From Girardia tigrina (lineage: Eukaryota), in NCBI GenBank assembly GCA_001938485.1, contig MQRK01241356.1:43554-107553 (forward strand): DNA of 64,000 nucleotides, given 5' to 3'. The notes beneath the pieces were generated by a model. It did no database searches and was not told the DNA's origin. It saw only the letters and a list, made by a program, of their open reading frames with translations. Numbering within the stretch: position 1 is the first letter of the stretch; the number at the start of each line of letters is the position of its first letter. This document shows, in pieces, positions 1 through 64,000 of the stretch. Made by a program: the position numbers and the translations under genes.

Positions 1-32
<32 letters not shown>
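1..32. repeat. (AT)n microsatellite
   Basis: Direct reading. Confidence 0.95.
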
Positions 33-39
<7 letters not shown>

Positions 40-3242: not shown

Positions 3243-3360
3243 GTATTATTTTTCATTCATTTCTCAATAAATGGGCCCAGCAATTCATCCACAGAATTTC
3301 CCTGCGCAACCCTTCTATCTCCGTCCGATTCTCGGGGCGACTTAAGGATCGGGCAGAACA

Positions 3361-3418
3361 ATGCATATTAAGCAAGATATTTTACATATTTTCGGGCTGT
3401 TGTTGATTGATTCAATAG
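3361..3418 (+). CDS. vkr: VKR exon: MHIKQDILHIFGLLLIDSI (VFT beta-1 strand or signal peptide)
   Basis: ATG with A at -3; strong donor ATAG|GTAAAA; phase 1 matches the next exon. Confidence 0.55.
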
Positions 3419-28900: not shown

Positions 28901-30855
28901 GTGTCCAGAATTTCTCCACCAGTCTTCTTAAAGTTCTGGACACACTGTCCTTTAGGATGGGGCGTGAGCAGTATGTTCTCGTCCGTTTCATCTCTTATAG
29001 TCTCCGTCTCCCCATTCGGAATTCTCCTCTCCCACACAAGGGATTGGTGGAGATGGAGACATATTCCTTCTTCATTCTGCACCAGATTCACATCAATTTG
29101 ATGAGTTTCTTAATCTTATGTATGACAAACTTGATCTTTGTCCACCAGTTCTTGATCTTCCCCGAAGTGGTTCATGCGTTAAGCCAGTCTAATGCTGCCT
29201 CAATCGACCATAAGTTCCTCTTTCGGGGACCGGTCGCACCTCTCTGGAGGGAGAAGACCGCTGAGTCCATAGTAAGCGTATCACTATATGTGATCATCTG
29301 AAAACTGTGAGCCAATGATTGAATCAAGTACTCATCTAATACTGATTTAATCCCCACCCCTCCATGTTCTCTCGGCGTATATAGATATGCATTAGATGCA
29401 TTTTTGGGCAATCCAAGCACTTTCTTTTGCAACAGTTTTATGATATTGTCCAGACTGTGACTCTTGTCATCCAGAGTCCCATAGGGAATGTAAAAGATTC
29501 TGAAGGCGAAAATTAGCTTGGAGTGCAAATAGGCCTGCAGTTTTTGCCATGGAAACAAGATAGATTCTGCAATTTCAATTAATTTTTTTTTAATTTTAGT
29601 TAATTTGAATATTACCTAAAGTATGTAAAAGTCATTTGATTATTTAATCAACTAACAAAATCACCTTTCTCTATCTCAGGTATAGTATTTTCATATATTT
29701 GAATCTTGCTGTTTTCTTTATATGGAATAGCAATTCGTGCACACTTTGATGAGTGGAATTTGATACCCAAGATGTCAGTATGCTCTACTGCTCTGCCCAC
29801 CATTGCCTACATTCTGTCCTGATTATGGGCTAACAGGACCAAGTCGTCTGCATATGCTAAACAACTAACACGGTGATTTGCTATAACAAGATCGCCACCA
29901 GATACCCTGTGTAAGTCCATTAGAACAGGGTTAATGGCGATGTTAAACAGCAGCATGGAGAGAGAACATCCCTGTCTCACCCCCACTAAGATTGGGATCT
30001 GTTTCGTTACCGTATTGTCGCAATTGTACGCAGACGAGAAGTTCTTGTACACCTTCCTAATCAGGTCGCAGGAATCCTCTCCTACACCAATCCTTCTCAA
30101 CAGTTTCAGGATAATCTCCACTAAGACTGAACCGAATGCATCAGCATTGTCCAGCATAGTGGCATTAAAATGCATCCCATGACGCCTCCCCTTCTTTTAT
30201 CTCATATATTGGATCATGAATTGAAGATGAATAAGAAAATTACATTAGAACAATTTCCCTGTCATTCTCAAGCCATTGAAAGAGCCATCAAAGATGTTTC
30301 TTCTGCCAGTTGCAAAGTGTTTGGTCACAAGTCCAGACATGGTATGGTATTACTGTGTAAAAAATCAAGGAAGGAATTGCCCAAGGTGCAAAGCAAAGCT
30401 GATTTCATGTGACTTCTTTTTATGCCCTCGCTAATACATTTTTAAACTTTTGGCTGGATGTTTTTAATAAAAAATAATTTCGAAAGTTGATTTTTGTCTT
30501 TGAAAAGGATAATTCAAATTGGCCCTTCCTAATCACTGACGTTGTCAGTATATATTTCAATGCGGGATGAGGACACAGAATATACTATCTCAGCCCAAGA
30601 GAGTAAATAATATATTTATAAGCTCTTAAGAAAGCTACATCTAAATATGGACAAAGGCGCAAAACACATTCCGACACTAGCCGAATTACATTGTTTTCAC
30701 ACTTATGTTGAACTGCATTTTCGGAGAAAAGTTGGGAGCAGTAAATGTCCATAAATCTAAGTAAAATGGTTTGATTCGATGTTTCTATACCAAAATACAA
30801 CTTTTTAACCATGTTTCCTTTCTTGAACTCAAAATTTATTAACATTCGACCCACC

Positions 30856-33900: not shown

Positions 33901-36900
33901 TGTATTCTCAATTGAAAAATTTATTTGCGAATTATAAATCTTGGTTTTTCGTTTTGATTTCAATCCTACTTCCAAAGAGAAGCTTGGCCTACTGCACTTT
34001 TGCATCTTTATAGTTAGTATTTATCTTTAAGCATGGTTTATGATACTATTCGTAGCTTCTGTCCCTTTTCATGATTAGCAATTCAGGAAAATGTCATTCC
34101 CTATGACACCTTGCACCTAGAAATCTGCAAAGTAGCTGCAAATAAATGTACCTTGCATCTTTAATATACATCTGAGTACTTGATCTGTCTTTGGATATTT
34201 GATGATACGGTAGGGGTCAATAAATAATCTAATGCTTTTAAGTTTTGTGTTACGAGGTTTTTATTAAAATGGTGTTTAAATTAAACGGTTGTATTTTTCT
34301 TCTTGTTTAGTTACTTAACTAATCTCTTGAAAAGTATGACGTGTAATTTTTATACATCAAGATTGCAAATTGCTCAAGATTGAAGTCATTAAACAACCTT
34401 TAGAACTAAATACATTTCGCCTAAATTAACACATTTATGTTTCATAGAAAAGCTTACAATTTCAAGGGATTAGACAAACAAAAAAACAATATCCGAAGAT
34501 AATTAAAAATTATTAAAAATTATTAATTAAAAATATTAAATATATCATGTGCATCAAGTTCCATAGCTAAACTTTTGACCCCGGGGCATGACCTTTGATA
34601 ACACTATGCATAACAGCCATGTTGCAGTCATCTTGATGTCCTTAATGATTGTTTAGGCGTGAACTTAAACCATGACGATTGCATAAATTGAAAATCCATT
34701 TATCTGATAAAGGAAAGGTTCTTTCGTCGATTTCTAGTCCCCTTACTATTTCCTTTGCCTGTTCTCGAATGTGCTTATAAGTTTTATAGTTTTATATTTC
34801 CTCTTTTAACCAAATAAAAATAAATCTCTTTTAGCTTTGAAAATGCTGCTGGACAATTTCCTCCAACATGGCGTTTTTTTTTGTTTGTCACTTCTGTTTA
34901 TGAATTGATTTTTTCCTCTCGCCATTCTCGGATCTGTTTATAATCTATCGCTGTGGCCCCGGCTGCACTACTGCTAAAATCAATAAATTCTTCTTCAAAT
35001 CAATTTTGAGCACATTTGTTCGATCTCGTGAGCATAGCGAAGAAACTTTTTATAAAATCTTCTCACGAACGGATAAACTTTTAGCACGTGTTTTTCAGAT
35101 CATGCTGGAAGAACGATTTCTAGGACTTCTCAGCGCTCCTTGAATGAACTTTACTTTCTACGGTGTAAGATTTTCTTTTGAAATTCATCGTCAATGCAAA
35201 TATATATTTTTTGGAATATTTATTCAGATCTGGATTATTTAAATTAATTTTTTTTTAATTATAATTAATTTTTGTGTTAAAACAAATCTGATTGTAAAAT
35301 AAAATTCAAATTTAATAAGAATTTAAAAACCTTCCTCGTTGCTCTATTTAATTATTAGACGAGGAAATCTAATTGCTATGTCAAAGATTTTCAAACAATC
35401 TAATGTGTATAATTACAGAACATAGTAATGATTGATTAATTCTTGAAGTTTTACATATTTTCATTTTTTATAATAATTTGTATTAATTCCTTTAGCCAAT
35501 TCTCGATAATATCAATAAAAAGCTTTATGAAAAATTTTAAATGTTTAGAGAATTATAAAAATAGACAACATCATTCTTACAAATGTTATTTTCAATTCGG
35601 CGATGCTAATTAGAAATAAAAATATTAATGCAAATAATATAAATAAAAATAATATAATTTGAAATTAGAAAACATCATTTATTTAAAAAATTAATAAATA
35701 CTTGATTTATTTTTTTGAAAAAATTATATTTAACTTTTTTTATTTATTTAGATTTAACTTTTAAATAATATTGAAACTATTTTACACCAAAATATATTAG
35801 ACAAAATACCAAAAATAACAAATTCTGCTAAAATATTCAAACTTATTTAACAAACACAGTAATATGAAATTAACATTATCGAATATACGTGTCCCAAAAG
35901 TTTGCGTGACTGTAACACGCGGGGTGTGTACGATGACATGAGGTGGAACCAACCAATCGTAATTGAGGTGAACTCTCATTGGCTGCCCGTCGGCATGTGT
36001 GTGACATACGAATGTATTAATTTGTCATTTATTTCTCTTGTAGTTAGTTTGGAAGAGGCAGTGAAATCTCAACGAGCAATCATCTATTTCCTCTGGAAGG
36101 AAGACACCCACACTGCAGATATTGTGCACCGTTTACACCGCGTCTTTGGTGATGCCGTTATGAGAATAACGGCTGTCTTTAAGTGGGTGCAATGATTCCA
36201 GGCAGGGCTTCAATCATTGGAGGATGATTAACGCATTGGGCGACCAACAACGTCCGGATGTCAAGAAAATGTGAAAGTTATGGAGGAAGTCATTCTTGGT
36301 GACAAATGTCTCACTATCCGTGAGATCTCAGCTATTACAGTCGTTTCTAAAAGTCAGGTGCACCGCATCATGTCAGAGGAGCTGCATATAAGGAAACTGA
36401 CTGCCAGGTGGGTGCCGCGCCTCTTCAATAACAACCAGAAGGCTAATCGAAAGTCTGCTTGTCAAGAACTGCTGCAACTGGTTCATGATCTCGGTGAGGC
36501 GTTCTGGTCACGGATTGTGACAGTGGACGAAGCGTGGCTCCCGTTTTATCTTCCTGAAACCAAGGAGCAGTCCCGTCAATGGTTCCGTACAGGTGACGAC
36601 CCCCTTTAAAGGCGAAGACCGTTCATTCAGCCGGGAAGGCAATGGTTACAGTCTTTTGGGAGTGTGATGGGATAATTCACATTGATTACCTGCCAAAGGG
36701 GGTCACCATCAACAGCGCATACTACACAAACCTGCTCGACAAAGATCTGCGCAAAGCTCTCAAGAACAAACGGCGGGGAAAGTTGTCATCCATCCCATTA
36801 TTGCAAAAGGACAGCGCACGTCCCCATACAGCGAAGTTGACTGTCAGTACCGTGCAACGATTGGGCTGGACACTTTTGCCTCACCCTCCATATTCACCGA

Positions 36901-37823
36901 ACCTTGCGCTGGGTGATTATCACCTTTTCTCAGCATCGAAGAAACCCCTTCGAGGACATCATTTCGCGAATTTGGATGAAATGAAAACAGCAGTCAGTGC
37001 GTGGATTGCAGAGACACTGCGTATTTTCTTCGATAATGGTATTAGGAAGTTGACACAGAGATGGGAAAAGTGTGTGAAACTGAATGGTGATTATATTGAA
37101 AAGTTCGATAGCGATTCTGATGAGATTGATCAATTTTGTTAACTGGAATAAACTTTTTGAATTTGTTGTTACTTATATCAGTCCGCGAACTTTTGGGACA
37201 CCCCTCGTAATAAATACATAAAAAAACAGTTTTCACTCTCCTATCGGATAGGAGAGTAATCACTGTATATATATTACAATTTTTTTGCTAATATAAGAAA
37301 TAAAAATAAATTCAAACGTGATTAATATATCACTTGATAAATTAGTATCTTTAGCATTTGAATTTTTTTATCAACTAAAAATCACTTAAAATTCAGATCT
37401 CAGTCCGTAGAATTCATCCATTTGGCCAATTCAAATGGTGATTGTCAGTTCTCAAGCAACGCAAACAACGGAGATCAAGAGTCTGATCTCGGCTATGTTA
37501 CATACAAAACCAACGAGAACCATTGTGTTAATCAGGAAACAAATACATCATCGTCCGACCGACCAACAAATCTCCCTTTAAAACTACCTTCAAATTATCT
37601 TACCTCGACGACTGACAAAACCGATCAGTTCGACAACACTAATAATCCAGTGATCGTTTTGAGCGACATGATAACAAAACCTGTCACAAATCACAGCTGC
37701 TCTCTTGACCTGAGCACTGATACTGGAGTTTCTGAGATCGAATGTATGATGGATAGACAGTCCCAGACGCCCTTGAGCAGTGACATCCCCCTCAGTGATC
37801 AGTGTATTCAAACCAGCGTTTGA
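3361..37823 (+). CDS. vkr: Venus kinase receptor (VFT + TM + tyrosine kinase), spliced gene; join(3361-3418,3879-4046,7416-7569,7616-7781,9996-10273,10323-10472,14145-14350,14422-14693,20037-20353,22297-22529,28262-28481,31614-31761,31810-32048,37397-37823), ~1011 aa
   Basis: All exons are bounded by AG/GT and join in frame with no stops. VFT motifs: VCS, YFFRTIPS, WNWKQIAIL, RIFIVEYFEEATRLIMCAAYKLQMTLENGFVWLLNPW, NCTKEEI. Juxtamembrane W..PSDG..C..G.C then a TM helix. VKR-type kinase start IPGHDVVINRTVGKGHFGTVFGGEA..WVMVAVK, then HRD..RN, DFG, RWLPPES. The 5' start is uncertain. Confidence 0.9.
3879..4046 (+). CDS. vkr: VKR exon, VFT lobe I (SLNRVSDLNKRYFENSCYELVLDIRNLSCVEDLVLKEYLQY...IVVAYL)
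   Basis: Open frame absent from the ORF track; Y-x-L-x-L...C pattern of the ANF/GABA-B VFT; AG/GT boundaries; phase 1 to the 7416 exon. Confidence 0.8.
4787..5135 (+). repeat. Dispersed non-autonomous repeat (other copies ~16595-16900 + and ~19430-19520 -)
   Basis: Shared blocks ACTAGTAAATCAA, TTCTTTATGC.GACA.AACTCTACT, GGAACTCCG, TCATCGA.AATGAGTAAGT. Confidence 0.65.
6025..7193 (-). mobile_element. Mariner (Hsmar1/cecropia-like), internally deleted
   Basis: TIRs TTAGGTTGTTGCAAAAGCAATGC / GCATTCCTTTTGCAACAACATAA with TA flanks; WVPHEL, TCDEKW. Confidence 0.9.
7416..7569 (+). CDS. vkr: VKR exon, VFT (AVCSDSLE...TSTADSPNFGNVTQYKYFFRTIPS)
   Basis: Classic VFT 'SP......YFFRT.PS' motif; tttag/gtaaat boundaries. 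Confidence 0.9.
7616..7781 (+). CDS. vkr: VKR exon, VFT (FREWNWKQIAIL)
   Basis: Follows a 46-nt intron; W.W..IA motif. Confidence 0.9.
8827..9260 (+). repeat. Duplicate of 5841-6250 (flank plus mariner end)
   Basis: ~400 nt of high identity including the mariner TIR and TA junction. Confidence 0.85.
9996..10273 (+). CDS. vkr: VKR exon, VFT lobe II (ALKRIRDQKNGRIFIVEY...GFVWLLNPW...NCTKEEI)
   Basis: GABA-B/VKR-like motifs; phase 0 acceptor tgtag. The donor GTTTAG is weak but in phase. Confidence 0.9.
10323..10472 (+). CDS. vkr: VKR exon, VFT (FAVFTVEAIEKIGIAIDKLLKENPSALSVLHT)
   Basis: YDA-equivalent helix; 49-nt preceding intron; phase 2. Confidence 0.85.
10625..11030 (+). repeat. Dispersed repeat; second copy ~63510-63960
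   Basis: Shared GAGGAATATTT.GAATGTT, GTCTCTCCTACCCAGA, GATTAATATTTTAATTC. Confidence 0.65.
12267..12544. mobile_element. piggyBac-type MITE
   Basis: TTAA-CCTTCACTCTGTGCAT ... ATGCACAGAGTGAAGG-TTAA. Confidence 0.85.
12673..13533 (-). mobile_element. 3' part of an R2/NeSL-group non-LTR retrotransposon (RLE domain, 3' UTR, short A tail)
   Basis: RDRVDLQV...LYLIDIKCP...K..HYENLA...VGDLKTW restriction-like endonuclease motif. Confidence 0.75.
14145..14350 (+). CDS. vkr: VKR exon, end of VFT (KFISFISNVDQQGNRISE...)
   Basis: Open frame; phases match both neighbours; donor G|GTATGT. Confidence 0.8.
14422..14693 (+). CDS. vkr: VKR exon, juxtamembrane + transmembrane helix
   Basis: LWG...PPSDG...C...GLSC, then ILIFNAIILIPILGMIMFGYCFAL and the basic stop-transfer RQLRKK; donor GTAAGT. 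Confidence 0.9.
15410..15980. mobile_element. MULE-like foldback MITE with 16-bp subterminal repeats
   Basis: Inverted repeats of GGACATTT.CTCAC / GTGAGGAAATGTCC; tandem units at 15879-15960. Confidence 0.6.
17340..17840 (+). mobile_element. Decayed LTR-retrotransposon gag-like fragment
   Basis: Purine-rich ORF pieces ending in a degenerate zinc knuckle ITCWNCRGTGHKS. Confidence 0.45.
20037..20353 (+). CDS. vkr: VKR exon, kinase subdomains I-V
   Basis: GKGHFG, VAVK, FLSEA, HENIVKLVGV, LIME...GDL. Confidence 0.95.
20542..21180 (-). mobile_element. MULE transposase C-terminal fragment
   Basis: LAALIFVP, YFFSTYI, WNHY...KTTNCSEGFHNAL...SHPNIW. Confidence 0.75.
21523..21658. repeat. Near-perfect 136-nt inverted repeat (hairpin)
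   Basis: 66-nt arms, 3 mismatches, 4-nt loop ATAA. Confidence 0.9.
22297..22529 (+). CDS. vkr: VKR exon, kinase subdomains VI-VII
   Basis: DIAAGLDYLHKNRYVHRDVALRNCLL...VKMGDFGLAR. Confidence 0.95.
23307..24560 (+). mobile_element. hAT element 5' remnant with BED zinc finger (spans the N-gap 23865-24071)
   Basis: TAGGGGTTCCAATC terminus with ATCCCG subrepeats; SKAWEYFKK...AKCLKC...KGSSTKGLITHLLSIH at 24416-24555. Confidence 0.55.
26450..27160 (-). mobile_element. Tc1/IS630-like DDE transposase, decayed
   Basis: FIF.DEVGF, NISVLATMNKYGMI, ILIMDNA, YLPPYSSFLNSIENIFSVWK. Confidence 0.8.
27366..27642. repeat. 21-bp periodic minisatellite of GTTRCCATRGCAAC-like palindromes
   Basis: Units start at 27366, 27387, 27408, 27429 and again at 27608, 27629. 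Confidence 0.75.
28262..28481 (+). CDS. vkr: VKR exon, kinase subdomains VIII-X
   Basis: [40 protein letters not shown]. Confidence 0.95.
28575..30172 (-). mobile_element. R2/NeSL-group non-LTR retrotransposon RT + CCHC region, decayed
   Basis: DAFGSV, GVRQGCSLSMLLFN, LAYADDLVL, PWQKL, YLYTPREHGGVG, CRRCPNDKETLAHVLTGC, RH. Confidence 0.85.
30173..30858 (+). mobile_element. hAT-superfamily (hATm-like) 3' fragment
   Basis: FPCHSQAIERAIKDVSSAS C-terminus; terminal ...TTCGACCCACCCTA followed by (AT)n. Confidence 0.55.
30859..30906. repeat. (AT)n microsatellite
   Basis: Direct reading. Confidence 0.9.
31614..31761 (+). CDS. vkr: VKR exon, kinase subdomain XI
   Basis: IIKKCCAYRPSLR...PECVEPSLSD; phase 2/0 consistent. 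Confidence 0.85.
31810..32048 (+). CDS. vkr: VKR exon, Ser-rich cytoplasmic tail
   Basis: 48-nt intron before; open frame; GTAAGT donor. Confidence 0.8.
32433..32856 (+). mobile_element. Non-autonomous Helitron carrying a degenerate (TTAGGG)n tract
   Basis: 3' hairpin CCCGTCAT-AC-ATGACGGG (32828-32845) followed by CTAG|T; 5' CTATTATATATAAAG. Confidence 0.6.
32541..32703 (+). repeat. Interstitial degenerate telomeric (TTAGGG)n, ~27 units
   Basis: Direct reading. Confidence 0.9.
33140..34500 (+). mobile_element. Highly decayed hATm-like transposase
   Basis: Remnants resembling V.WDGKLL, RLP, QAKAV...DW, HARWLSK across frameshifts. Confidence 0.45.
35888..37207 (+). mobile_element. Mariner (irritans/Hsmar2-like), full length with stops and a frameshift
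   Basis: Right TIR ...CTTTTGGGACACCCCTCG-TA; WVPRL, TVDEAW, DSARPH, HPPYSPNLA..DYHLF. Confidence 0.9.
37397..37823 (+). CDS. vkr: VKR terminal exon (...DQCIQTSV*)
   Basis: attcag acceptor in phase 2; 427 nt to the stop; independently conserved in the inverted copy at 61754-62180. Confidence 0.85.
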
Positions 37824-38542
37824 GTTCTCTTTTTTCTAAATGTATTTCTCAATATTTTAAGTCACTGTCCCGTATATTTATTATTATTAAGTTTATTTAA
37901 TAATTATTATAGTTATTTATATATATATATAATTATGAATGTATTTATGTTTTGTGAACTTCATTTTTGTAGCCGATTTTTATGTGCATCAGATTTACTA
38001 TTTTTTTAATTAACATTTATTAATGTAAGTAATTCTTTGTATTGTATTTTGGAGTCTAGGAAAGGTGCTCGGTTCGAACGATGTTTCCTCTTGTAAATAC
38101 AGTTTTAATCGCGAGTGTACTTTCATAATTGTCGATTTGTGATGTGATGGATTCGATTTTGCTGTTCATTGATTGTAAATAAATGTTTTAAAATATTTTT
38201 AATTCGGATTATGTTGTATTATCCATTTAGATATATCGTATATTAGATTGTGTTGATTATACTTTTGATTGGTTGTCTTGGTTTTGAAATTCGAATTTTT
38301 CGCTTGTGTGGCGGCGCATTGTCCGTGAAATTTGAATGCCGATTTGTGTTGCGAAAATATTGCAATAAAAAGTTTGTGTGCGTATTTCATATTTGTTTAA
38401 CAAAGTCGACAAAGAAACAAAAATGAAAAAGTTTTATAAGTAATAAATGCGCCACAAATTAGTAATATTCAGTTCAAGAGTATCTTAATTTTAAGATTTC
38501 AATCTAAACTTTTATCGTGTAGGTAAATAAATTATTCAAATA

Positions 38543-39597
38543 TTAGGTTGTTTAAAAATAATTTCGTTTTGTAACCTTAATCTTTAAAGACAAATATCTC
38601 AGCGTAGAATCAACGTTATTAATCGAAATAAAACCCTTAGCATCAATACACTTTTGCCAACGTTGCACAAGTTTATTTATTCCGATTGCATAAAATTCTG
38701 GCTTCTGGAGGCGATGAAATCGTTGAAGGCAGTTTTAGCATTCCCTTGATTTTTGAAGTACTTCTCCTGGAGGAAAATGTGAAGATGTTTGAAAAAGTGA
38801 TAATCAGTAGGTGAGTGTGGTGGATGACTCAAAGTTTCGTAGCCAAGTTCGTTCAACAGTTGCATTGTCAGACGTGCGATGTGTGGTCAAGTTGTGTCGT
38901 GGAGAAAAATAGGCCGCTTTCTATTGACTAATGATGGTTGTTGTTGTAGTTTCTGGTTCATTTTGACAATTTCCTGACAGTATCTCTCTGTCGTAATTGT
39001 TTCTCCTGGATTTAGGAAGCTGTGATGAATAACACCGAATGCAGACTACCAAACAGTACCATCATCTTTTTTGGTACAATTTCGTCTTCGGAAAGAGTTG
39101 CGGAGCTTGATTATGGTTCCACCATTGAGAAGAACGTCTCCGACTGTCGTAGAGAATCCATTTTTCATCACACGTTACAATTCGGTCCAGAAACGGATCA
39201 TTCTTGTTCAGCAGAAGAAGTGAAGACGATGCCTCAAAACGACGCATTTTTTGATTGTCATTTAATTTGTATGGAATCCATTTATCCAGTTTTTTCGACT
39301 TCCTAATGTCACGCAGATGGTTTGAAATTGTTCCTATCGTGACAACTAGTTCTTTCGCAATGTCTCGACTTGTTGTGCATGGATTCGCTTCTACTAGAGC
39401 CTTCAAATTTTCATTTTCAATAGCAGTTTCCGTCCACGACCATCATAATTTTTGAGGGTCTCATCTCCTTCTTGAAATTTTTTGAACTAACGTTGCAACA
39501 TACATTCGATTGTGGTTCCCTCGCCCAATGCACCATTGATATTACGGGCGGCCACCGATGCTTTGTGGCCAAGTTTAAATTCATATAAAAAATTTCC
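38543..39597 (-). mobile_element. Mariner (cecropia-like), 5'-truncated
   Basis: TA-TTAGGTTG terminus; KKLDKWIP, TCDEKW, HPPHSPTDYHFF. Confidence 0.85.
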
Positions 39598-40840: not shown

Positions 40841-43800
40841 GCGCTTGTAATTCAAAATGTCCAAATTCAAAATGTCCAATGTCAAAATGTTCGAATTCAA
40901 AATGTCCAAATTTTAAATTTAAATGAAAAATGTAAATTTAAAATATTTAAAATGGTTCATTCAATTTATTAAGTACTAAAGTAATAAAATAAATAAAATA
41001 TTACAATAAATAAAAACCTAAAATACTAAAATAAATAAAATGCTACAATACTTAAAATGCTACAATAAGTAAAATAATAAAATAAATTAAATACTAAAAT
41101 TAAAAATACTAAAATAAATAAAATACTAACATACTAAAACACTAAAGTATAAAAAATTAAAATGAAAAGAATAAAATTTTAATAATATATTCTTTCAACT
41201 AAATCCCAAAAATAGTCCTCAAGTCACATCCTATTTATTTCTTTTCAATAATAAATTCCTTTTATCTATCACTAATTACAACGTATTTGCGCTCTCTACG
41301 TAATTTTCCACCTGCCTCAATTCTTAGAAACTTTTGAAGAATAGCTTCTTCTTCGTCGACTAACTTTTTAACAAAGTTTCTTGGTGTTTTATTAAGAGCT
41401 CCAAATGTTGCTCTAAAAATATTATGCCATCCTTCAATGGCGTTGTTTGTGCGTGGTGTATTTTCTATAATACTAGATCTATTATTCCATGGAGTAATCT
41501 CAAAGCGTGATGGTTGATCATTAGAGCCGATGTATGTTACAAAAAAATAGTCATACAAAGAATTAAGACAAATAGGAAAATCAATTAATGTTATGAAAAT
41601 TCTTGAAACTTGATTTAGTGGAATAAATGCTAGGGCCTTTAAAGCTTTAACAAATCTTCTTAAAGTTTCATTTGTGGGATCTTCGATTCCCAAAGAGTTT
41701 TGATCAATTTTTCTGTTAATATTCTTTGCCAAATGAAAATGGCATGCAGTAAAACGAAACACAGGAAATATTAGGGTGAACCAAAAGTCTCTTCGTATTT
41801 TTTATCAAAAAATTAAACATAATTTTACAACAAATAAAAAACATTTAAGGTTCAAAGTAAAGGTCATTTGAATCTATAGCTAGAACTCATCTATTGGCAA
41901 GTTGTGCGATCCCGCTGCGATACCAATCCTTGTTCTTAGAAGCGAAGAACTGGTAACACCCGTTTTCGACCTGGGTCAGATTATTAAAGCTGCAACCACA
42001 AAGAAAGTGTGCCATAGAGCGGAAAAGGTGATAGTCGGATGGCGCAAGATCCGGACTATACACTGGGTGTGAAAGAAGTTCAAAGGCGTCGAGAGTTTTG
42101 ATTTTTTCCTTTGTTTGTTTGGGGGTGTGCGGTTTTGCATTGTCCTGTTGTAGAAGAACTCGCTTTCAATTGATCAAAGCGGGGTATTTCTCGCCAAGTG
42201 CCGCATACATTCGATCAAGTTGGGCGCAGTAAATGGTCAGCGTCAATGGTACGACCATTTTGAACTAGCTCGAAGTGAATCACGCCTTCGAAATTCCACC
42301 AAACACACAAAAGTGCCTTCCTTGAGAAACGATCTCGTTTCGCTACCGGCTCGCCATTTGTCCGGGGTCTAACCATTGATTTTGTTGGTCTGGATCTTTT
42401 CATCGCAAATTACAATGCGACGGATGAAATGGTCATCGCACGGATTTTCTAGCAATTTTTGACAAGTTTCGAAACGCTTTTCGACTTGAATTTGTGTCAA
42501 TTCATGAGGCAATTCTCGACATCGTCTATTGACCTTGCCAAGAGCGTGAAGGTGTCGTACAATAGATATTTGAGGAATATCGAGTTCGGCCGACAATCTG
42601 CGAGTACTTATTGACGGATTTGTCTCGACGGCTTCACGAATTGCTCCGGAATCTACGGTGATAGGTCGGTCTGAACGTGCATTGTCTCAGAGGTCAATGT
42701 CGCCTTCGTTGAACCTTTTGAACCAATTTTGTGCAGTACGATTTGAGACCACATTATCACCTCAACTTCGCATATCTTCTCTGTTGCTGCAGTTGCGGTT
42801 AAGCCATGTTTCCAGTAATGGCATAAAAGAACACGAATTTCAAAATATTCCGTGATTTTTCTAAAAGACCATAAAAATTATATTAACGACTAATTAGAAG
42901 TGTTAACATATATTGTGATAGAGTAGTTTAAGAGCTTTAAAAACATATAGCACATGTATATAAAATATCTTTATTTGGTAATGAGAAACAATTGAACAAA
43001 AAGACGTAGAAAATACGAAAAGACTTTTGGTTCACCTTAATACATTCTTAAAAGCATTTATAGCAGCAAGCTCAAAATCTGTTATAATAATATCTGGGTC
43101 AAGATCAATTACCAGAGATTTTAATATATTGAGAAACTCAAAATAAATTTTATACGATTTTGACGGCAATTATGCAAAAACTATTGGAATTACATGATAG
43201 TCAACAATGATTGATATGGTATACTTCTGTTTCCATCCCTCAGGACAAGTATCAAACGTACCATCGATGCACCACAATCTATAAACCTGTAAATTATGAA
43301 TCATTGTATCTGAATAAAAAATACATATACAACTATTATATTCTAATTCACGTCGTCTATTAGGACTGTATTGATTAAAATTTGCATCTCGACGAGTAAA
43401 CATTAATTCTTCCTCGATGTTCAATACAGGTTAATATATAAGATCTGGGTCGATGATGTTCCGTCTTTTCCTATTTATTAGCTGAACTAATGAGGCCTGT
43501 GTGCCCGTTGCGGCAATATTACAGATACTTTCATTTTCTAAGGCATCATTAATAATCTCTCTGGGCGAATTGTCCGTATTTATGGCAGATAATATAATTT
43601 GGGCTCTTATTAGTCTACGCTTAACCATATCAGCTCTTGGAGCATGATTATGTTCTTTTGATATTTGAACATCATGTTGTTCTAAGCACCGTCCTTTTTT
43701 ATCAACTGTGTTTTTACTGATCCTCCACAGCTTCTAAACGTGCACCTCCATGTTATCAATGACTTCCCGATATGCTTTATAGTGTATTCATATCCAACAT

Positions 43801-44193
43801 ATTGTAGAGTTTTTCCACCTTTTTGGTTCTCAGAAATTTCAACAAGCATGGGGCTAAAATAAAAAAAATTAAATTTAAAATTTATCATTTTAACATACTT
43901 TTATTTGAAAATATCTTAATTTAAATTTATAATTAAAAATTTAAAGAAACAATTTAAGCAAAAATTTTAAACATTTTGAATTCACATTTTGAATTTAAAT
44001 TTTAAATTTTATTTACATTTTGAATTTAAATTTTTAATATTATTTACATTTTGAATTTTTGAATTTAGTCATTTTGATTTTGGACATTTTGAGTTTGTAT
44101 ATTTTAAATTTGGACATTTTGAAATTTGTCCATTTTGAATTTGGACACTTTGAATTCAAAAAATTTGATTTTGGACATTTTGAAACAACACGC
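40841..44193 (-). mobile_element. MULE (FLYWCH + MULE transposase) interrupted by a mariner
   Basis: Inverted 15-bp TTCAAAATGTCCAAA arrays at both ends; ITWRCT, WCIDGTF, DFE, CHFHL, RTNNAIEGWH. Confidence 0.85.
41771..43040 (-). mobile_element. Mariner nested in the MULE
   Basis: TIRs TTAGGGTGAACCAAAAGTCT / AGACTTTTGGTTCACCTTAA; TA TSD; PHELT, CDEK, QDNAKPH, YSPDLAPSDYHLF. Confidence 0.9.
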
Positions 44194-44363
44194 TTTAAAT
44201 CACCACATACATATCATAATTGTTCCCAACACCAAATTGTAACCCACTAGTTCGCCGGTCCATGCAAAGAGACTTGATTCTTATAAATAAAAATTTTATA
44301 AATTAAAATCGCTATAAATAAATTTTTAAAAATTTAAAATAATTTAAAAATAATTTTAAATAC

Positions 44364-48080: not shown

Positions 48081-49766
48081 TATAACGGATAACATGAAAT
48101 AGTAGGTGGACATGAAATAGTAGGTGTAATGAAGTTTTCAAAAAATTTTCCACCTACTATTAAAATAGTAGGTGGAATCAAATAGTAGGTGTATCGTTTT
48201 TAAAGCAATTTATAAAAAAAATATTTTTAAAAATGAAAAAAGAACTTTATAAAAATTAAAAAATGTGTCATATAAATTTTAATTTGTTTTATTAATTGAA
48301 ATTACTAATTTCTATTTACATTTATACAAAGTAATTTTTAATATTTTTACATTTTTTAAATAATAGCCCAACGATGACAAAAAGAATGTTCAGTATAGCT
48401 TTCAAAAATGAAGTGGTAGCATTTATGGAAACTGGCAAAACGGCTTATGCTGCAGCGAAATACTTCTCCATGCGAGATAAAACGGAATATTCGAATACAG
48501 TATTTCAACAATGGTTTAAAAAAAAGGAAAGGATTAAGCAACAGCAACCGCATATGAAAAGAGTATCGGGTGCAGGTAGGAAAACATCTTTAGGTGTGCT
48601 TGAAGAAATTATTGCTGATGAAGTAATCGAACTTAGAATTATGAAAATTAAAGTAACAAGAACATTCATATCGGAAAGAGCTNNNNNNNNNNNNNNNNNN
48701 NNNNNNNNNNNNNNNNNNNNNNNNNNNNNNNNNNNNNNNNNNNNNNNNNNNNNNNNNNNNNNNNNNNNNNNNNNNNNNNNNNNNNNNNNNNNNNNNNNNN
48801 NNNNNNNNNNNNNNNNNNNNNNNNNNNNNNNNNNNNNNNNNNNNNNNNNNNNNNNNNNNNNNNNNNNNNNNNNNNNNNNNNNNNNNNNNNNNNNNNNNNN
48901 NNNNNNNNNNNNNNNNNNNNNNNNNNNNNNNNNNNNNNNNNNNNNNNNNNNNNNNNNNNNNNNNNNNNNNNNNNNNNNNNNNNNNNNNNNNNNNNNNNNN
49001 NNNNNNNNNNNNNNNNNNNNNNNNNNNNNNNNNNNNNNNNNNNNNNNNNNNNNNNNNNNNNNNNNNNNNNNNNNNNNNNNNNNNNNNNNNNNNNNNNNNN
49101 NNNNNNNNNNNNNNNNNNNNNNNNNNNNNNNNNNNNNNNNNNNNNNNNNNNNNNNNNNNNNNNNNNNNNNNNNNNNNNNNNNNNNNNNNNNNNNNNNNNN
49201 NNNNNNNNNNNNNNNNNNNNNNNNNNNNNNNNNNNNNNNNNNNNNNNNNNNNNNNNNNNNNNNNNNNNNNNNNNNNNNNNNNNNNNNNNNNNNNNNNNNN
49301 NNNNNNNNNNNNNNNNNNNNNNNNNNNNNNNNNNNNNNNNNNNNNNNNNNNNNNNNNNNNNNNNNNNNNNNNNNNNNNNNNNNNNNNNNNNNNNNNNNNN
49401 NNNNNNNNNNNNNNNNNNNNNNNNNNNNNNNNNNNNNNNNNNNNNNNNNNNNNNNNNNNNNNNNNNNNNNNNNNNNNNNNNNNNNNNNNNNNNNNNNNNN
49501 NNNNNNNNNNNNNNNNNNNNNNNNNNNNNNNNNNNNNNNNNNNNNNNNNNNNNNNNNNNNNNNNNNNNNNNNNNNNNNNNNNNNNNNNNNNNNNNNNNNN
49601 NNNNNNNNNNNNNNNNNNNNNNNNNNNNNNNNNNNNNNNNNNNNNNNNNNNNNTCAAAACAAAAGCACCAAATAGTAGGTGTAAACCAATATTGGGCGCC
49701 TTTTCAATTTTTTTCCACCTACTATTAAAATAGTAGGTGTCCTACTATTTCATGTTATCCGTTATA
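48081..49766 (+). mobile_element. pogo-family transposon (Brinker-like DBD + CENP-B HTH); centre lies in the N-gap 48683-49653
   Basis: TIRs TATAACGGATAACATGAAATAGTAGG / CCTACTATTTCATGTTATCCGTTATA; ORF at 48374 KRMFSIAFKNEVV...AAAKYF...GAGRK. Confidence 0.75.
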
Positions 49767-55043: not shown

Positions 55044-56324
55044 TTAGGTCTATAACTTAGTTTTTTGAATTTTTTTTGCAGAACAGTCAAGTTTATTTAT
55101 ATGACATAATAAGTTTTATTCTAATCAAAATATTTTCCATCGTTAATTATGACTTTCGACCATCTTTCAGGCAAATTATGAATTCCATCGAAAAAAAGTT
55201 TTGGTCTTTTGATGCGATCCATTGTTCCAGCCATTTTTTTATATGTTCCTGGTTTCTGAAGTGCTCGTCCCGAAGAGCGCTTTGCATTGATCGGAACAGA
55301 TGATAATCTGATGGGGTACAATCTGGTGAATAGGCAACATGCGGTAGAATTTCCCAATTAAGTACTTCCAACGTGTTTTTTACTTGTTTTGCGACATGTT
55401 GCCGAGCATTGTCATGGACCAAAATCACTGTGCGCTGTTTGTTGGCTGGAATAGGACGTTTTTCTTTCAATGCATCGTTCAATTTCATTAACTGTTGTTG
55501 GTAACGTTCTACATTAACAGTTTCATTCGAATTCATCAGCTCATAGTATAGTATACCTTTCTGATCCCACCAAATGCACAACATAACCTTGCTTCCATGA
55601 ATGTTTCTTTTTGCTGTTGACGTGGACGGTTCGCCGGGATGAACCCACGATTTCTTGCGTTTAAAGTTAACATAATAAATCCATTTTTCATTTCCAGTCA
55701 CAATATTATGCAAAAACGACTATCTTCGTTGTCTTGTAAGCAATGAATTGAATATCAGTAATCGACTTTCAATGTTGGCTTGATTCAATTCATGTGGTAT
55801 CCATTTTCCTTATTTTTGAATCATTTTCATAGCATGTAGACGTTTACTTATGGTTGCTTGAGTAACTTTTAACTGTTTTGCAAGCTCTTTCTCTGTTTGA
55901 GTAGAATCTTCCTTCAGTAATGATTCCAAATCTTCATCTTCGAATCCTTTTGGTTGACCGGAACGCTCTTTGTCACTTACGTCGAANNNNNNNNNNNNNN
56001 NNNNNNNNNNNNNNNNNNNNNNNNNNNNNNNNNNNNNNNNACCATAAGTTTCTTCAAGAAGCCGAAAACTGTCTGCAGCTTTTTTCTTTTGATTAAAGCA
56101 AAACAGTAGTGCTTCCCGCAAATGCTGTTTTGTTGATATGAAAGTTGTCATGCTAAAACAAGATTAAAAATATGTTTATGACGCATTTAAGGTCAATGAC
56201 CAAATTAATTTTAATGCCTCGATTTCAGCACTTTAAAAATCTGTACGTACGACTGTAAAATAATGCTTATTACAAAGGTTACACCATCTCTTAGAAAATC
56301 CAAAAAACTAAGTTATACACCTAA
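55044..56324 (-). mobile_element. Mariner (Mos1/mauritiana-like) nested in the MULE
   Basis: TIRs TTAGGTCTATAACTTAGTTTTTTG / CAAAAAACTAAGTTATACACCTAA; WIPHEL, HDNARQH, YSPDCTPSDYHLF. Confidence 0.9.
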
Positions 56325-57015: not shown

Positions 57016-57262
57016 TGTAAACGAATGATTCTCTGACGTTTCCATCGATTTTGTTACAACAGAAGATCATTCCTTGAAACCTTTGAACAACAAACACAAA
57101 TCGAAATCGAGATTTATCTGTGCCGTTCTCTCTCTCGTATGTGATTTTTTGTTATATATGTTTATTTATATTCTGTACAAATAGAAATTTTATACATATT
57201 TATCTTTATTTTTTTACGTTAAAGGAGTTCATTGAAACACGTTTTCAGTTAGGTCTTTTACA
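57016..57262. mobile_element. Possible solo LTR inside the MULE
   Basis: TGTAAA...TTTACA termini interrupting the transposase; no TSD seen. Confidence 0.35.
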
Positions 57263-58458
57263 CTTACGTTCGATTGTTGCATGCAATTATTGAATTGATT
57301 CCATTGGCTTCTCAAAACATTTTAGTTGATTTTGAACAAGCAGCAATTAATACATTTAGCAATTCATTTCCAAATTCTTCGGTAACGGGTTGTTATTTTC
57401 ACTTATGTCAAAGTGTCTTAAGAAAAGTTAACGAACTGGGGTTAAAAGTTTTATATGAAACTAAGGATAATGAGAATATGCTAGATGTCTTCCAGCTCTT
57501 GTTTTTGTTCCATTAAATGATGTTGAAGAATCATTTGATATTCTAGCTGAATTTCAGCCACCAGGAATCGAAAATTTAGATGAATTAACAACATTTTTCA
57601 AGCATACATATATTCGTGGCAGAAGAAATCGAATGAATGGTGTATATTTTACACATCCGCATTTTAATAAAGAGGAATGGAATCAAAATTTAGCTGGAAT
57701 TTCTGGAATTGCTAGAACAACAAATTCTGTCGAAGGCTGCCACTATGCGCTGCAATCGTTATTTTCTTGTCATCAACCAACATTATGTAAATTTTTAGAA
57801 GGAATAAGTAAAGACATGCAAAAATAAAAAAACATGTTTTTTACAAGATGCCACAGGAGTAATTCAAATTTCGACCAAAAATATCGAGTATTAAATGATA
57901 GAGTTTCAAGAGTAGTGTCAAATTATGGACGAACAAGCGTACTGATTTATCTTAGATCAATTGCATATCTGTCTTACTCTTAAATAAAATTTACCTTATT
58001 TCTGATGTTTTGTATTAATGTGATATTATATTTGTTATACAAAATTTAGCTGATTTTGAACAAGCAGCAATTAATACATTTAGCAATTCATTTCCAAATT
58101 CTTCGGTAACGGGTTGTTATTTTCACTTATGTCAAAGTGTCTTAAGAAAAGTTAACGAACTGGGGTTAAAAGTTTTATATTTGTATTAATGTGATATTAT
58201 ATTTGTTATACAAAATTTGTATAAAATTTGTATGTAAATATGATGCAGTTAAGTGTGACCTGGTTAAGTGTGATGCGGTTAAATGTGATGCGGTTAAGTG
58301 TGATGTGGTTAAGTGTATACACACCTTAATAACATAAAGAAATATGATAAATGCATTATTTAAACAAAATAGTGATTGTAGTGACTGTAGTCATTGTTTT
58401 TTTCGAAATTCTTTGTTTTTATTTTATTTTCCGTTTTCATTAAGTTATAAACAAATAA

Positions 58459-58675: not shown

Positions 58676-61600
58676 TAATTAATTGATGACTTTTTAAATG
58701 ATTAATGCTTTTAGATGAGTTTATTATTATTATTTTTACTTTGATAAGTATTTTTTTTATTTATGATATTTTTAAAATAGTACAAGAGTAATATCTGTTG
58801 AAGTAAACATTATTTTTTTAATTTATGTATACTAAAAACAACAGAATATGTCTTTTATACGGTGACTTGATAGTTCATTATCAAGAAAAATTATACGAGT
58901 ATCTGTGTTCTATTATAGTGATATTTAGGATACTCTGATTTTTTTCAGTATGAGTGTTTTTGACTGTTGACATCGATTGATTTCACATGAATCCCTAACA
59001 CTAACCCTAACACTTGTGATATTTATTTTACCTTACATCTATAATTTAAGGTTATATCTATTTGGAAAATTATAACTAAATGAAAAAGCAATTACTATCA
59101 CGATATGGAGAGAAGGCTTTCTTGTAAATTTAAAATCTCTTTGAATTAACGTTTCTTCTATTAAATTATAAAATAAATTTTCCATAAATGACTTATATAT
59201 TACAGAGTTTTCCATTCAGTTGTGTCAATTTTGCATACAGTTTTGACAATGTTTCAAATGATTTTGACATCTTTTCAAAGGATTTTGAATTTGACAGATA
59301 GATCTACCTAAACTCTACATCAAGATGTCAGTGATTTGTTTTTAGAATGAGCTGTTGCGATTCGGGGAATCCCCTTGTACATGATACTTACCAACGATAA
59401 GTCGCTAATGCATAATTCTGAGTTACGCATTGAAAGGCATAAACTGTATTGTTTTGAAATTAAATTTTATTTTAACGGTGTTTTGTTCATTTTTATGATA
59501 AGTAGTGAGTTTAAATTTTGATGATATCAAATTGCAGTAATAATCAGCACATTTTGATTTCTGGATTGAAACGTTTAAAGTGAGTGTCGTCAAGTTTCAC
59601 TTTTCGTTATAAATCATCTGTTTGATGAATATTTGTGATCCACTCTTGGGGCGAAATATGAAATGGGAACTGTGTCATCCGATGACTTCTAATCGGATAC
59701 TCAAACTTCCCTGGATGCAAAGATCGAGGACACAAAGAATATCGGTGTGTAAATCAAAATGTTGAGAGAGTCTTTCACTATCGTAATCATGTGTTTAAAT
59801 TTGGACGAAAAACTTGGCAAAAATATAGAGATTACGTAAAAACAGACTCGTTTGACTGTTCATGAAAATAAAGTTGATTATATTACTTCACTTATTCAAA
59901 TACAAACAAAAAACTTCCAGATTTAAAGTATACAGATTTACTGAAGCAGAAAAGAAATCTTTATCTTATGAACAAAATTCTCAAGGCAATTGTATGCAAA
60001 CAAATCGGACTATGTATCGTCAAGCATTAAACTGGCTGGACCTTTTGTGACTATGATAAAAACATAACATAAAAGTTTAATGATGATAAAGTGCAATAAA
60101 AATAAAATGATAAGGTGGTATATTAAAAGGCTATGTGCGAAATAAAAAAAGACCGTGTTGCGAAATAAAACGATAAAATATAACTGTTTGGCAAAAATAA
60201 CAAAAAATGAGATCAAAAGAATAGAAGGGAAATTTCAGCGAAGTAAAATGATAAAATTATAACGGTATTGTTGGGGTTACTTTTGGTGAACTTTAAATTT
60301 TTGATATTTTTAAAAGATCATATTTATATTTTAGATAAAGTAAAAATAATGTCGATTAATTAAAATGAAATAATTCTTTAAAATAAAGATTTAAGTTATA
60401 GATAATATATTTACTAATTAAAATAAATAAGATTTTTTAAAAAATATATTTTGTAGTAACATTTCTACTAATTAAATCGAAAAAATTTTTGTAAAAATTA
60501 TAGTTCACAGATAGTATATTACTAATTAAAATGAAATAAGTTTTTAATAAATTTTAGAGTAATAATAATATTTTAATTAAATTGGGACAAATTTCTATAA
60601 AAATGAAGTTTTAAAAAATTCACAATTAAATATCATCTTCGAAGTTAAAGAATATTGTAAAGAAGATTTTGATATATTTTGTAACACTATTTAAAATAAA
60701 ATCATAATACTTTTTAATGTATAAAATCAATATGAAGTAAAATAAATTTTAAAAAGAATGCAATTTTATTAAAATCAAATAAAAGATTTTTATTAAAAAA
60801 TAATTTATCATCGAATGATTAAAAATCATAAAAAACATTTAAGAATTGAATTTTTTAAAAATATTTTTAAAAATCTAAATTTATATTTCAATTAATGAAC
60901 ATTGTAAAAAATTAATAAAACAAAGAACAACATATGATTTATACAAAATTGAATAAAATAACATATTTATATATTTATCGATATTATTATTTATATTTAG
61001 AATTTTGAGATCTGTATTATGTAATTAAAATTTTGTTCCTCATAAATTTGTTTCAATAATGAAATATAGAAATAAAGTTAACAAAATTATGACTTCCAAT
61101 TTTAATCACGAACCTAATAGTATGTTCAAAAATAAAAATAAGCAGTCATAATCAAACATTTTTATGCAATGAAATGATTCAAAAGGAAAGAGAACACATA
61201 CCACATGAACTGATTGAAACGAACATTGGAAATCGTTTATTGGTTGATAATTCTTTGCTTAAAATGCTCCGAAGATGCCAAATTTGCATCGAATTGTGAC
61301 TGGCGAGGACAAAGGAGGGTAAAAAACAACAAATAATATATTTATGTACAATCAAAGCTTTACAAACTGCATATATTAACGAAAACCGATAGACATTCAG
61401 TTGCATCTGCGCTTCACACACCACGGAACTCAACCAAAGCAACATGCAAACAACTTTATTTAGAAGAAAAAAATATTCGAAACAACAAATTAGTATAATA
61501 AGCAATAATAAAAAAACAATAAAGAATCTATTGTACATATTAAAAGAAGCTACAAAAATTAAGTGCAAAAAAATCATGCTTAAATAAATTATAAGTATAA

Positions 61601-61753
61601 CTTTTGAATAATAATAATAATAATAGTAATAATAGTTATAATATTAGTAAAAATAATAATAGTCGTAATATTATTAATAATATTAAAAATAATAATAAAA
61701 AACAAACACTGGTTATTACAAATCACTAAAAAAGAATTGAGAAATAATCAAAC

Positions 61754-62180
61754 TCAAACGCTGGTTTGAATACACTGATCACTGAGGGGGATGTCACTGC
61801 TCAAGGGCGTCTGGGACTGTCTATCCATCATACATTCGATCTCAGAAACTCCAGTATCAGTGCTCAGGTCAAGAGAGCAGCTGTGATTTGTGACCGGTTT
61901 CGTTCTCACATCGCTCGAAAGAGTCACTGGATTATTAGTGTTGTCGAACTGATCGGTTTTGTCAGTTGTCGCTGTTAGATAATTTGAAGGTAGTTTTAAA
62001 GGGAGATTAGTTGGTCGGTCGGACGATGATGTACTTGTTCCTTGATTTACGCTTTGGCTCTCATTGGTTTTGTATGTAACATAGCCGAGATCAGACTCTT
62101 GATCTCCGTTGTTTGCGTTGCTTGAGAACTGATAATCACCATTTGAATTGGCCAAATGAATGTATTCTATGGACTGAGAT
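61754..62180 (-). CDS. vkr: Terminal exon of a second, convergent VKR paralog (upstream exons presumably beyond the window end)
   Basis: 427 nt with the same acceptor (aattcag), phase and stop as 37397-37823; ~27 nt and 14 aa differences; no indels. Confidence 0.85.
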
Positions 62181-64000
62181 CTGAATTGGAGAGATTGAAG
62201 TAACAATTAACGGTGAATATAAATTGTACAAAAATATTTTTTAATTGTTTGGAAAGCGAATGATTTGTCAGAGATTTATCTGATTAAACTCAATCTTTAG
62301 ACTTTGTTTTTAAATCATTACAGCTAACTTTCTTCGTTATACTCAAGCGATAAACGTAGGTAAAATGATAATTTATATTTGTTAGAATTTTACAACCGTT
62401 TCGCATAATGTAATTGATAGTTCAATATGTGTGTCTTCAATAAGCCTTCAAGAATGCGCGAACAATTTTCAGTTTTTCAAATATCTTATGAAAAAATGCT
62501 CTTATTATTAAGAACGCTAATGTGATTTCCAATACTTTAATTATCATCTCAACTCGAATTGCCTCCAGGACAATTCAACACCAAACTTTCGTAGTTAAAG
62601 TCGTTCTCGAATGATAAATTTTAATTCTTTTTCTAAATCTCAAATTATTCGAACAAATTTAAATTACAATGTCTTACTAAAATATTTCAAAATTATTTTC
62701 AAAAATATTTAAATTCATTTTAAATATATTATTTATGATTAATGTTTGATTCGCATTGGGGGTGGGTGATAAAGCCGATCTCGCCATTGCAAACCGGGCA
62801 TGTGTGGAGCGCATCAAAAATATTGAAAATGTCAAGATTATTCACGGTATGTTCAAGGATTCCGGCGAAGACGATGCAGAAGAATACAATGGTCATCAGA
62901 AAGTTGAATGTAGCAATAAAGCAACAAGCAACTGATCCGAATGTTTCAAATGAATCATTTGCAATAGCAGTAATATTACAAGATCGAATCTATCAACACC
63001 TTTGAGTCAATCAACTCCGGAATGTCTAAATAGTCAATCTCAATCCTTGGCAAACTTTGCGGGTGAAACTTTTTGGCGGGCGAAACACAATCCTAAAAAC
63101 AACATTCCACGCTTTTTAAACGCAGTATAATTAAATCCAATTAAGTCTTGTTTCATTTTTTCGGTAGATGAAATTTTGACAAAATCAAATAAATGGAAAC
63201 GCGCCGCACACTTGGCTTTCATTTATTCAGTATTGAAAGATTTTATTTTAAAATTATTTTCTCTGTACTATTGATATACTAAGAAAGATATATTAAGAAA
63301 GACTTTCCCGAATAACGGTGAAAAAATAATGCGAACGTTGCTGGACAATGTAGTTTCATTGCTTATACTGTATGTTTGAACTAAGTACCGAATTAGAGAA
63401 CGAGATTTGAATGTAAAGATTATAAAGTTAGTTTATATATTGTCTCATATTTTGAGATATATATCATATAAAATGAAACATTAAATATAATAAACTAAAG
63501 TTTCCAATTTGTGAGGAATATTTGGAATGTTGATGTTTTGTGTGTTGTTTGAATGTTTTATGTTGATTTGTTATTGCGTCTCTCCTACCCAGAATGCAGA
63601 TTAATATTTTAATTCTTATCTGAAACTAATTTATTCAAATTTAGATTTAATATTAAAAATTTTATTTTATTATTATTGTAAATTTGTAAATAATTAAATC
63701 AAATTAATATTTTTAAATGTTTCGTATTCATTTTATTTTAACCAATAACATTTTTAGTAAATATTTTAAATAAAATATATATTTCCAAGTTAGTTCAGAT
63801 TTTGGAATGAGAAGTGTAATGGAAAATGAGAGCGAGTGGATCTCTATTTTCCATTAACTAAATAAAATAATAAACACAAAAATAATCTGGAAAATTTATT
63901 GTTTAGAATGATCAACATACGGTTGCTTCAGGATTGTTGGTATTAGTGTTATGAAATAAATAGATTGTTTTCTGGAGTCCCAAATCAGTATTAAGTATAT

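Follow-up and report, generated by a model that had tools for sequence, protein, structure and literature searches.

The closest described systems, cited here from the available parts of each source, are neighbouring paralogues in which one region is kept alike by gene conversion. In Capitella teleta, Dlxa and Dlxb lie tail-to-tail, ~18 kb apart, and share a 100% identical stretch ascribed to proximity-based mosaic conversion; engrailed/invected and several Drosophila inverted pairs are cited as comparable cases (PMC3199776). In mammalian TLR1 and TLR6, conversion keeps the C-terminal signalling region homogeneous, in contrast to the diverging N-terminal parts (PMC2077338). Two genes for Venus kinase receptors (VKRs) are known from trematodes and from Lepidoptera, where they lie in tandem, and the only planarian candidate in the available text of that survey is truncated (PMC3703292); planarians have VKR genes according to PMC4026697. 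The literature searched, accessible in part, contained no case of conversion between VKR genes, and none was found there of conversion in the cytoplasmic tails of inverted paralogous receptors or of interlocus conversion of a last exon.

Here we describe two gene copies, A and B, in a 64,000-nt stretch of Girardia tigrina DNA, referred to below as the window. As in the published account of Capitella Dlxa/Dlxb, the copies are arranged tail-to-tail, are divergent overall and share an identical stretch that includes silent sites. Unlike the Dlx pair, where that stretch is the homeobox, the most conserved region, the part shared here is a tail of low complexity for which no homologue was detected in other taxa. 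A and B also resemble TLR1/TLR6 in being neighbouring receptor paralogues homogenised on the C-terminal side, but the TLR case, as far as its source is available, involves a folded TIR of ~300 residues, nine species and known partners, whereas A and B share 141 likely disordered residues in one genome. As described for VKR1 and VKR2 of Schistosoma mansoni and of Lepidoptera, two VKRs appear to be present in one genome; the trematode copies are reported on different chromosomes, unlike A and B. We think it probable that the last exons of A and B are kept alike by repeated DNA-to-DNA interlocus gene conversion between neighbours. Most likely, this exon-limited conversion between inverted neighbours is an ordinary known process operating on a gene pair not previously described for it; what is unusual is that the homogenisation affects the least conserved part of the protein.

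Gene A and its surroundings

Thirteen exons with GT-AG junctions were recovered for gene A on the plus strand, from 3879 to 37823, giving a 991-codon open frame; no convincing first exon was found in 1-3880. The gene model is composed of the following elements.

3879-4046, 7416-7569, 7616-7781, 9996-10273 and 10323-10472 (+): five Venus-flytrap (VFT) ectodomain exons (GT-AG model, Pfam, tblastn)
14145-14350 (+): linker exon (tblastn)
14422-14693 (+): transmembrane/juxtamembrane exon (hydropathy peak, tblastn)
20037-20353, 22297-22529, 28262-28481 and 31614-31761 (+): tyrosine-kinase exons (Pfam, PDB match)
31810-32048 (+): penultimate exon, where the tail begins, with a phase-2 donor (exon model)
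37397-37823 (+): terminal exon, 141 codons, stop TGA (inverted pairing, exon model)
37824-38270 (+): 3' UTR, homologous to that of B, with the first AATAAA at 38178 (UTR alignment)

By its predicted architecture and by similarity, gene A is a putative VKR. The model matches a Paragonimus VFT-plus-kinase protein over residues 5-762 (BLASTP E 4e-145). Pfam ANF_receptor (PF01094) was recognised on two of the five ectodomain exons, both times below the curated cut-off (E 7e-4 and 1.6e-4), and tblastn with VFT-plus-kinase proteins supports the ectodomain as well as the linker and transmembrane exons. A single hydropathy peak, with a mean of 2.5 over 19 residues, lies near model residue 414, between the VFT and the kinase. 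Pfam PK_Tyr_Ser-Thr (PF07714) matches the first three kinase exons at E 2e-21, 1e-17 and 1e-15. For the first of these, the best PDB match is S. mansoni VKR2 (7ZVS; E 3e-30, the next being 2e-13) and the best match among longer proteins is to Paragonimus VFT-plus-kinase proteins (53%); for a second kinase exon, SmVKR2 and the insulin receptor score equally, behind one EGFR entry. A search of a kinase exon against proteins of near length returned no candidate, and the protein searches with the tail or a kinase exon of A did not find a close VKR of the same group. Similarity ranks of the kinase favour VKR, and a kinase tree of 18 rows without an outgroup, in which A sits on a long branch, is uninformative on its placement.

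All four kinase motifs taken from the available text of PMC3703292, GxGxxGxV, VAxK(16x)E, HRD(L/V/I)xxRNxL and DFG, are present in the model. The activation loop has a single tyrosine (WCYQ) rather than a twin YY, and LPPE in place of M(A/S)PE. According to the same partially available source, the twin YY is typical of VKRs but absent in lepidopteran VKR1, and so not strictly defining (PMC3703292); the single tyrosine of A is shared with this lepidopteran receptor. The activation loop is also lengthened, at 22490-22529 and 28262-28295 (+). In the juxtamembrane region, at 14660-14693 (+), A has YEYL where the Paragonimus protein has FEEL. A pYExL site is reported to bind Shb in SmVKR1 and not in SmVKR2, which has FEEL (PMC5026347, available in part); the YEYL of A would fit a site of the SmVKR1 type. 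An ORF at 5415-5651 was considered as a further VKR exon and rejected, as it has no Pfam match and the model does not require it.

Between A and B, no host gene is indicated by the Pfam matches of the other long ORFs. Only seven of these 62 ORFs had matches at E up to 0.001, six to transposases or reverse transcriptases and one, weakly, to an HTH. Three N gaps are present in the window, and the tail-to-tail linkage and orientation of A and B rest on scaffolding across two of them.

35863-37139 (+), 55124-56163 (-), 6530-7009 (-) and 39065-39442 (-): mariner-type transposase remnants (Pfam Transposase_1, HTH_48)
29810-30196 (-), 57253-57824 (+) and 41890-42165 (-): remnants of reverse transcriptase and of MULE and DDE transposases, located in the spacer and in introns
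48683-49653 (971 N) and 55987-56040 (54 N), no strand: scaffold gaps between A and B, in the transposon-rich spacer

One mariner-type remnant ends ~250 nt ahead of the last exon of A, and a degenerate (GGGTTA)n-like array occupies 32545-32712 in the last intron. Two inverted arrays of 15-nt units (40847-40944 and 44030-44206, ~3.1 kb apart) flank transposase-like ORFs and are possibly the ends of one element. Another intron of A contains a near-perfect hairpin at 21523-21658, with 66-nt arms, 95% complementary, and a 4-nt loop. Direct repeats of 132 and 192 nt (92-95%) lie ~3 kb apart in two A introns (5833-6212 and 8819-9189), with a third, older partial copy at 38554-38680.

The inverted last-exon pair

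The longest inverted repeat of the 64-kb window has 452-nt arms, 37390-37841 and 61736-62187, which are 23,894 nt apart and contain the last exons of A and B. The two exons pair without gaps, paired positions x and y satisfying x+y = 99577; each is open for 141 codons and ends with TGA, and they are identical at 400 of 427 nt (94%). All 27 mismatches, 13 synonymous and 14 non-synonymous, fall between 37407 and 37682 (B 62170-61895), that is, in the first 286 nt of the exon. No mismatch is found over the next 144 nt, which comprise the 141 nt to the stop and 3 nt after it, and at the other edge the identity reaches 7 nt into the last intron.

37683-37826 (+): 144-nt tract identical to B 61894-61751 (ungapped pairing; no other letter in sequencing runs X1 and X4)
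61751-61894 (-): B arm of the identical tract (ungapped pairing)
37445-37513 (+): second identical block, 69 nt (B 62132-62064; pairing, and a separate shared 69-nt contig in X1)

The differences are concentrated in dense patches, with 9 in 29 nt and 10 in 55 nt, which the 144-nt tract adjoins, so that identical blocks of 144, 69 and 43 nt form a mosaic. At synonymous sites, there are no differences at the 28 sites of the tract versus 13 at 62.5 sites, P being ~0.008 if differences were uniform. When 27 mismatches were placed uniformly 200,000 times, an identical run of at least 144 nt arose in 0.039% of placements; with clustered mismatches merged to 18 events this rises to 1.2% (P 0.012), both tests being post hoc.

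Outside the exon, the last introns of A and B do not align (local score 33, shuffles reaching 40). Their 3' UTRs are homologous, with a local score of 73 versus a maximum of 52 in 50 shuffles, and the two tiles containing the UTR of B rank at the top of 398 tile scores (73 and 71, the next being 54). This UTR alignment has 275 of 376 columns identical and many gaps. An earlier note, made from the letters of this DNA, had described a last exon repeated in inverted orientation 24 kb away, with 27 patchy substitutions in ~286 nt followed by 141 identical nt, silent sites included, and the pairing confirms this description. The note had also called both flanks unalignable, which holds for the introns and proved wrong for the UTRs.

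Gene B as a second, spliced copy

The window contains only the 3' part of gene B.

61754-62180 (-): terminal exon, 141 codons, AG acceptor at 62181-62182 (pairing; contigs of runs X4, X9 and X10)
61300-61753 (-): 3' UTR with an approximate left end and with AATAAA at both 61460 and 61241 (aligns to the UTR of A)
62181-64000 (-): last intron, running off the window (intron-bearing contigs in X1 and X10)

No other exon of B was found within the window, where its upstream exon end has no match and tblastn gave no second copy of the other A exons. Public contigs were compared over window positions 61700-62230 in four of 23 listed runs (X1, X4, X9 and X10). None of the 23 is on record as RNA, X4 and X10 being guessed to be RNA and X9 unlabelled, and we rely solely on the spliced junction. 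In all three transcript-like runs (X4, X9 and X10), the exon of B is joined exactly at 62180, its AG acceptor, to an upstream exon outside the window, whose end keeps the frame and has the phase of the penultimate exon of A. Because the contigs make this join, B is a spliced gene and not an orphan fragment. In the 30 nt of this upstream sequence that are visible, B reads VYVDHHIPK where A has QTVDRNIPM; 15 of these 30 nt are identical, a far lower share than the 400 of 427 matching positions of the last exon (Fisher P 1e-9).

Beyond the junction, a B-type contig of X4 (2463 nt, no differences over 62064-62180) extends 2346 nt upstream, a distance that would reach the flytrap exons if measured in A. 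The B-type contigs of X10 and X9 extend 387 and 417 nt (387+30). The value of 387 equals the summed lengths of exons 11 and 12 of A (148+239), which suggests an exon boundary common to A and B, and the loose-end consensus of X9 and X10 fits mixed A-type and B-type ends (agreement 0.97 and 0.75). On the 3' side, a 477-nt X4 contig has 61700-61780 unchanged and continues past the compared stretch.

Furthermore, A and B are not haplotigs or alleles, since both types occur together in one DNA run: X1 yields contigs of the A type and of the B type, each continuing into the intron of the respective gene. Both types are also present in X4, at 61979-62093, and X10 contains a piece of the intron of B with 4 differences in 57 nt, which places the B locus in a relative as well. 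Alleles and an orphan exon were among the possibilities that the earlier note had named against itself; neither stood up to the spliced junction and to the distinct introns, UTRs and upstream exons of A and B seen in separate runs and in the relative.

Over the identical tract, X1 and X4 show no other letter, though such contigs collapse small bubbles, and one or two differences could be hidden there in this way. Indeed, the 9-site and 4-site patches were collapsed to one version, A-type in X1 and mixed in X4. Depth, a weak measure, is 1071 over the common X4 contig versus 1040 expected if the tract is common to A and B; in X1 it is ambiguous, depth in the tract being 207, below the 243-254 expected from neighbouring exon contigs, with the intron contigs predicting 185-204. 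In X9 and X10, a single 402-nt contig represents both genes; with bubbles collapsed, one of its patches is A-type and another B-type, a pattern possible without concerted evolution because bubble collapse can produce it. By contig branch points, again with small bubbles collapsed, the genes of X9/X10 agree at 62133 and 62163. We set aside as too weak the proposal that the tails of the relative are more alike than those of the window (0.92 and 1.11 of summed depth versus 0.72 expected), as contig depth is no copy number. Nor do we claim a lineage-specific conversion of the 62009-62063 patch in X9/X10, since this patch is short enough to have been collapsed once four recent-looking B sites are left out. 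A minor X9 contig (record 22, depth 48, 62140-62180) apparently pairs the A-type upstream exon with a B-type letter at 62159; it may be a converted allele that is segregating, a chimera from the library or the result of recurrent mutation.

Probable gene conversion and its alternatives

The last exon appears younger than the duplication, because it is 94% identical next to an exon end that is 50% identical and to introns that cannot be aligned. In the small sample of B available, everything beyond the exon is diverged, the upstream exon end at 15/30, the intron unalignable and the UTR gappy. Synonymous third positions have a GC fraction (GC3) of 0.45 across the last exon and of 0.52 within the tract, compared with 0.257 upstream (P 9e-6 and 3e-4), the difference being borderline at four-fold sites alone (P 0.04-0.07). 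GC-biased conversion raises GC at silent sites, a supportive rather than defining sign. Two other exons of A, 3879-4046 and 31614-31761 (+), have silent-site GC of 0.42 and 0.44 versus 0.21-0.26 in ten exons, and these may also have been exchanged with B. Collectively, these data bear out the old duplication with a spliced second gene that the earlier note had proposed (unalignable introns, 15/30 upstream exon end, spliced junction), and they support its view that the last exon was homogenised by conversion (identical tract with silent sites, diverged remainder, GC3).

Deep constraint does not explain the identity of the tails. The tail of A, ~220 residues in all, is rich in S/T/N/Q/D in its terminal-exon part (52%). 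At 37700-37740 (+), and likewise in the B arm, the identical tract encodes DTGVSE, presumably similar to a beta-TrCP phosphodegron. A search of 1.84 billion representatives with the tail gave no true homologue, its two matches both being low-complexity and rejected; none of 915 candidates among longer proteins matched it, nor did any of the VKRs fetched. Within the tract, the contig of the relative (X9/X10) carries the changes M>I and R>K. Constraint alone is thus unlikely, because the tail has no true homologue and the relative changes amino acids in the tract.

We propose that an old inverted duplication, suggested by the introns, the gappy UTRs and the 50% upstream exon end, would have produced A and B. 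Both copies would then have been kept as genes, to judge by the intact frame of A and the last junction of B, whose other exons are presumed. The introns would have diverged and filled with transposons, leaving the last exon as a substrate for ectopic recombination; this exon, the longest of A (427 nt, the next being 317) and the nearest to the partner copy, would for these reasons be long and similar enough to pair. Patches copied at different times would leave the observed mosaic of identical blocks and older divergent patches. Finally, mild selection on the protein would keep the exon free of indels, so that the tracts would stop at its edges. Between A and B, dN/dS is 0.27 in the first 95 codons, and therefore selection does act on the tail. 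The identical tails themselves are likely a by-product and not a selected function.

Alternatively, selection could favour the conversion: two receptors with different ligand domains, for instance heterodimer partners, might both need an identical C-terminal docking end. Identity is greatest at the very C-terminus, where both proteins end with QTSV, which we take to resemble a class I PDZ ligand. The dN/dS of 0.27 in the diverged part fits a need for a common docking end, and so do two precedents from partially available sources: schistosome VKR1 and VKR2 answer different ligands and heterodimerise (PMC4026697, PMC5026347), and TLR1/TLR6 have an alike TIR region (PMC2077338). On the other hand, the 46 codons of the identical tract contain no tyrosine, a motif like QTSV is absent from 12 of 12 other VKR C-termini inspected, and the one VKR docking site mapped in the available text of PMC5026347 is juxtamembrane and not in the tail. 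Moreover, the private changes are all non-synonymous, both in the X9/X10 contig (5 of 5, two of them in the tract) and in X4 (1 of 1). Selection for a docking end is hence, in our judgement, unlikely. The idea of the earlier note that the point of the identity is a shared signalling output is not supported either, given the tract without tyrosine, the two tyrosines in the last exon of B that have no counterpart in A (codons 6 and 16, upstream of the tract) and the two tract changes of the relative; as a functional reading of the tail it is weak. A stronger form, in which the fast-evolving and likely disordered tails are kept in lockstep within each lineage separately for a common docking end, with flytrap domains tuned to different ligands, patches sweeping in directions that differ between sister species and the template perhaps even being reverse-transcribed mRNA, seems to us quite unlikely.

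Besides the DNA-to-DNA exchange that we favour, the template could have been cDNA, conversion via reverse-transcribed mRNA being expected to show a 3' coding bias and to be confined to exons. Here, identity indeed peaks at the 3' end without leaving the exon to any extent beyond its edges, and the window holds reverse-transcriptase remnants. In addition, the DNA run X1 (record 5) contains an intron-less copy of the last exon of B joined to a B-type upstream exon end. Over the 190 nt in which it matches 61991-62180, it differs at 24 positions and has gained a 1-nt insertion (~10% decay), and it is likely a retrocopy fragment located elsewhere in the genome. Its junction with the upstream exon of B would mean that B mRNA was once reverse-transcribed in the germ line. 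However, the A/B identity extends 7 nt into the intron, versus a maximum of 6 in 78 pairs of A acceptors, although descent may also explain this; both genes have kept the last intron, their upstream exon ends still differ by 50%, and no homogenisation is seen in the 3' UTR, the region from which a cDNA would start. The literature searched, available in part, describes cDNA-mediated conversion in plant mitochondria only. We consider a cDNA template improbable here.

The retrocopy also bears on a third possibility, namely that one last exon was replaced once by the other and that the later patchiness reflects chance and purifying selection. The 94% identity of the exon beside far more diverged flanks would be expected from a single replacement, and the long identical run reaches only P 0.012 once clustered mismatches are merged. 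Patches of 9 differences in 29 nt and 10 in 55 nt beside 144 identical nt are difficult to reconcile with it. At one 10-site patch, furthermore, the retrocopy has six B-type and four A-type letters, and therefore those six differences would predate its ~10% decay, the tract being identical still. We regard a single replacement as distinctly improbable, and one replacement would already be one conversion event.

An artefact (collapsed bubbles, mis-scaffolding, A and B as alleles, or B as an orphan exon) has in its favour the N gaps of the window, two of the three separating A from B, and the collapse of two real difference patches in public contigs. It is very improbable given that the window retains 27 differences, isolated ones included, that neither X1 nor X4 has a variant letter over the tract (with the weak depth measure of X4 agreeing), and that A and B have distinct introns, UTRs and upstream exons in separate runs, and in the relative too, ruling out alleles and an orphan.

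Repeated conversion between the neighbouring exons thus remains the reading that we prefer, and it has practical consequences: RNAi or probes directed at the last exon would strike both genes, and assemblies merge A and B there. The locus would be of greater interest if the common tail proved to be selected; were the lockstep reading true, it would represent concerted evolution of a region that is not deeply conserved, the reverse of what the homeobox and TIR examples show. For the family, which has been proposed as a drug target in schistosomes and is little studied in free-living worms, the window documents a putative two-gene VKR locus in a flatworm genome.
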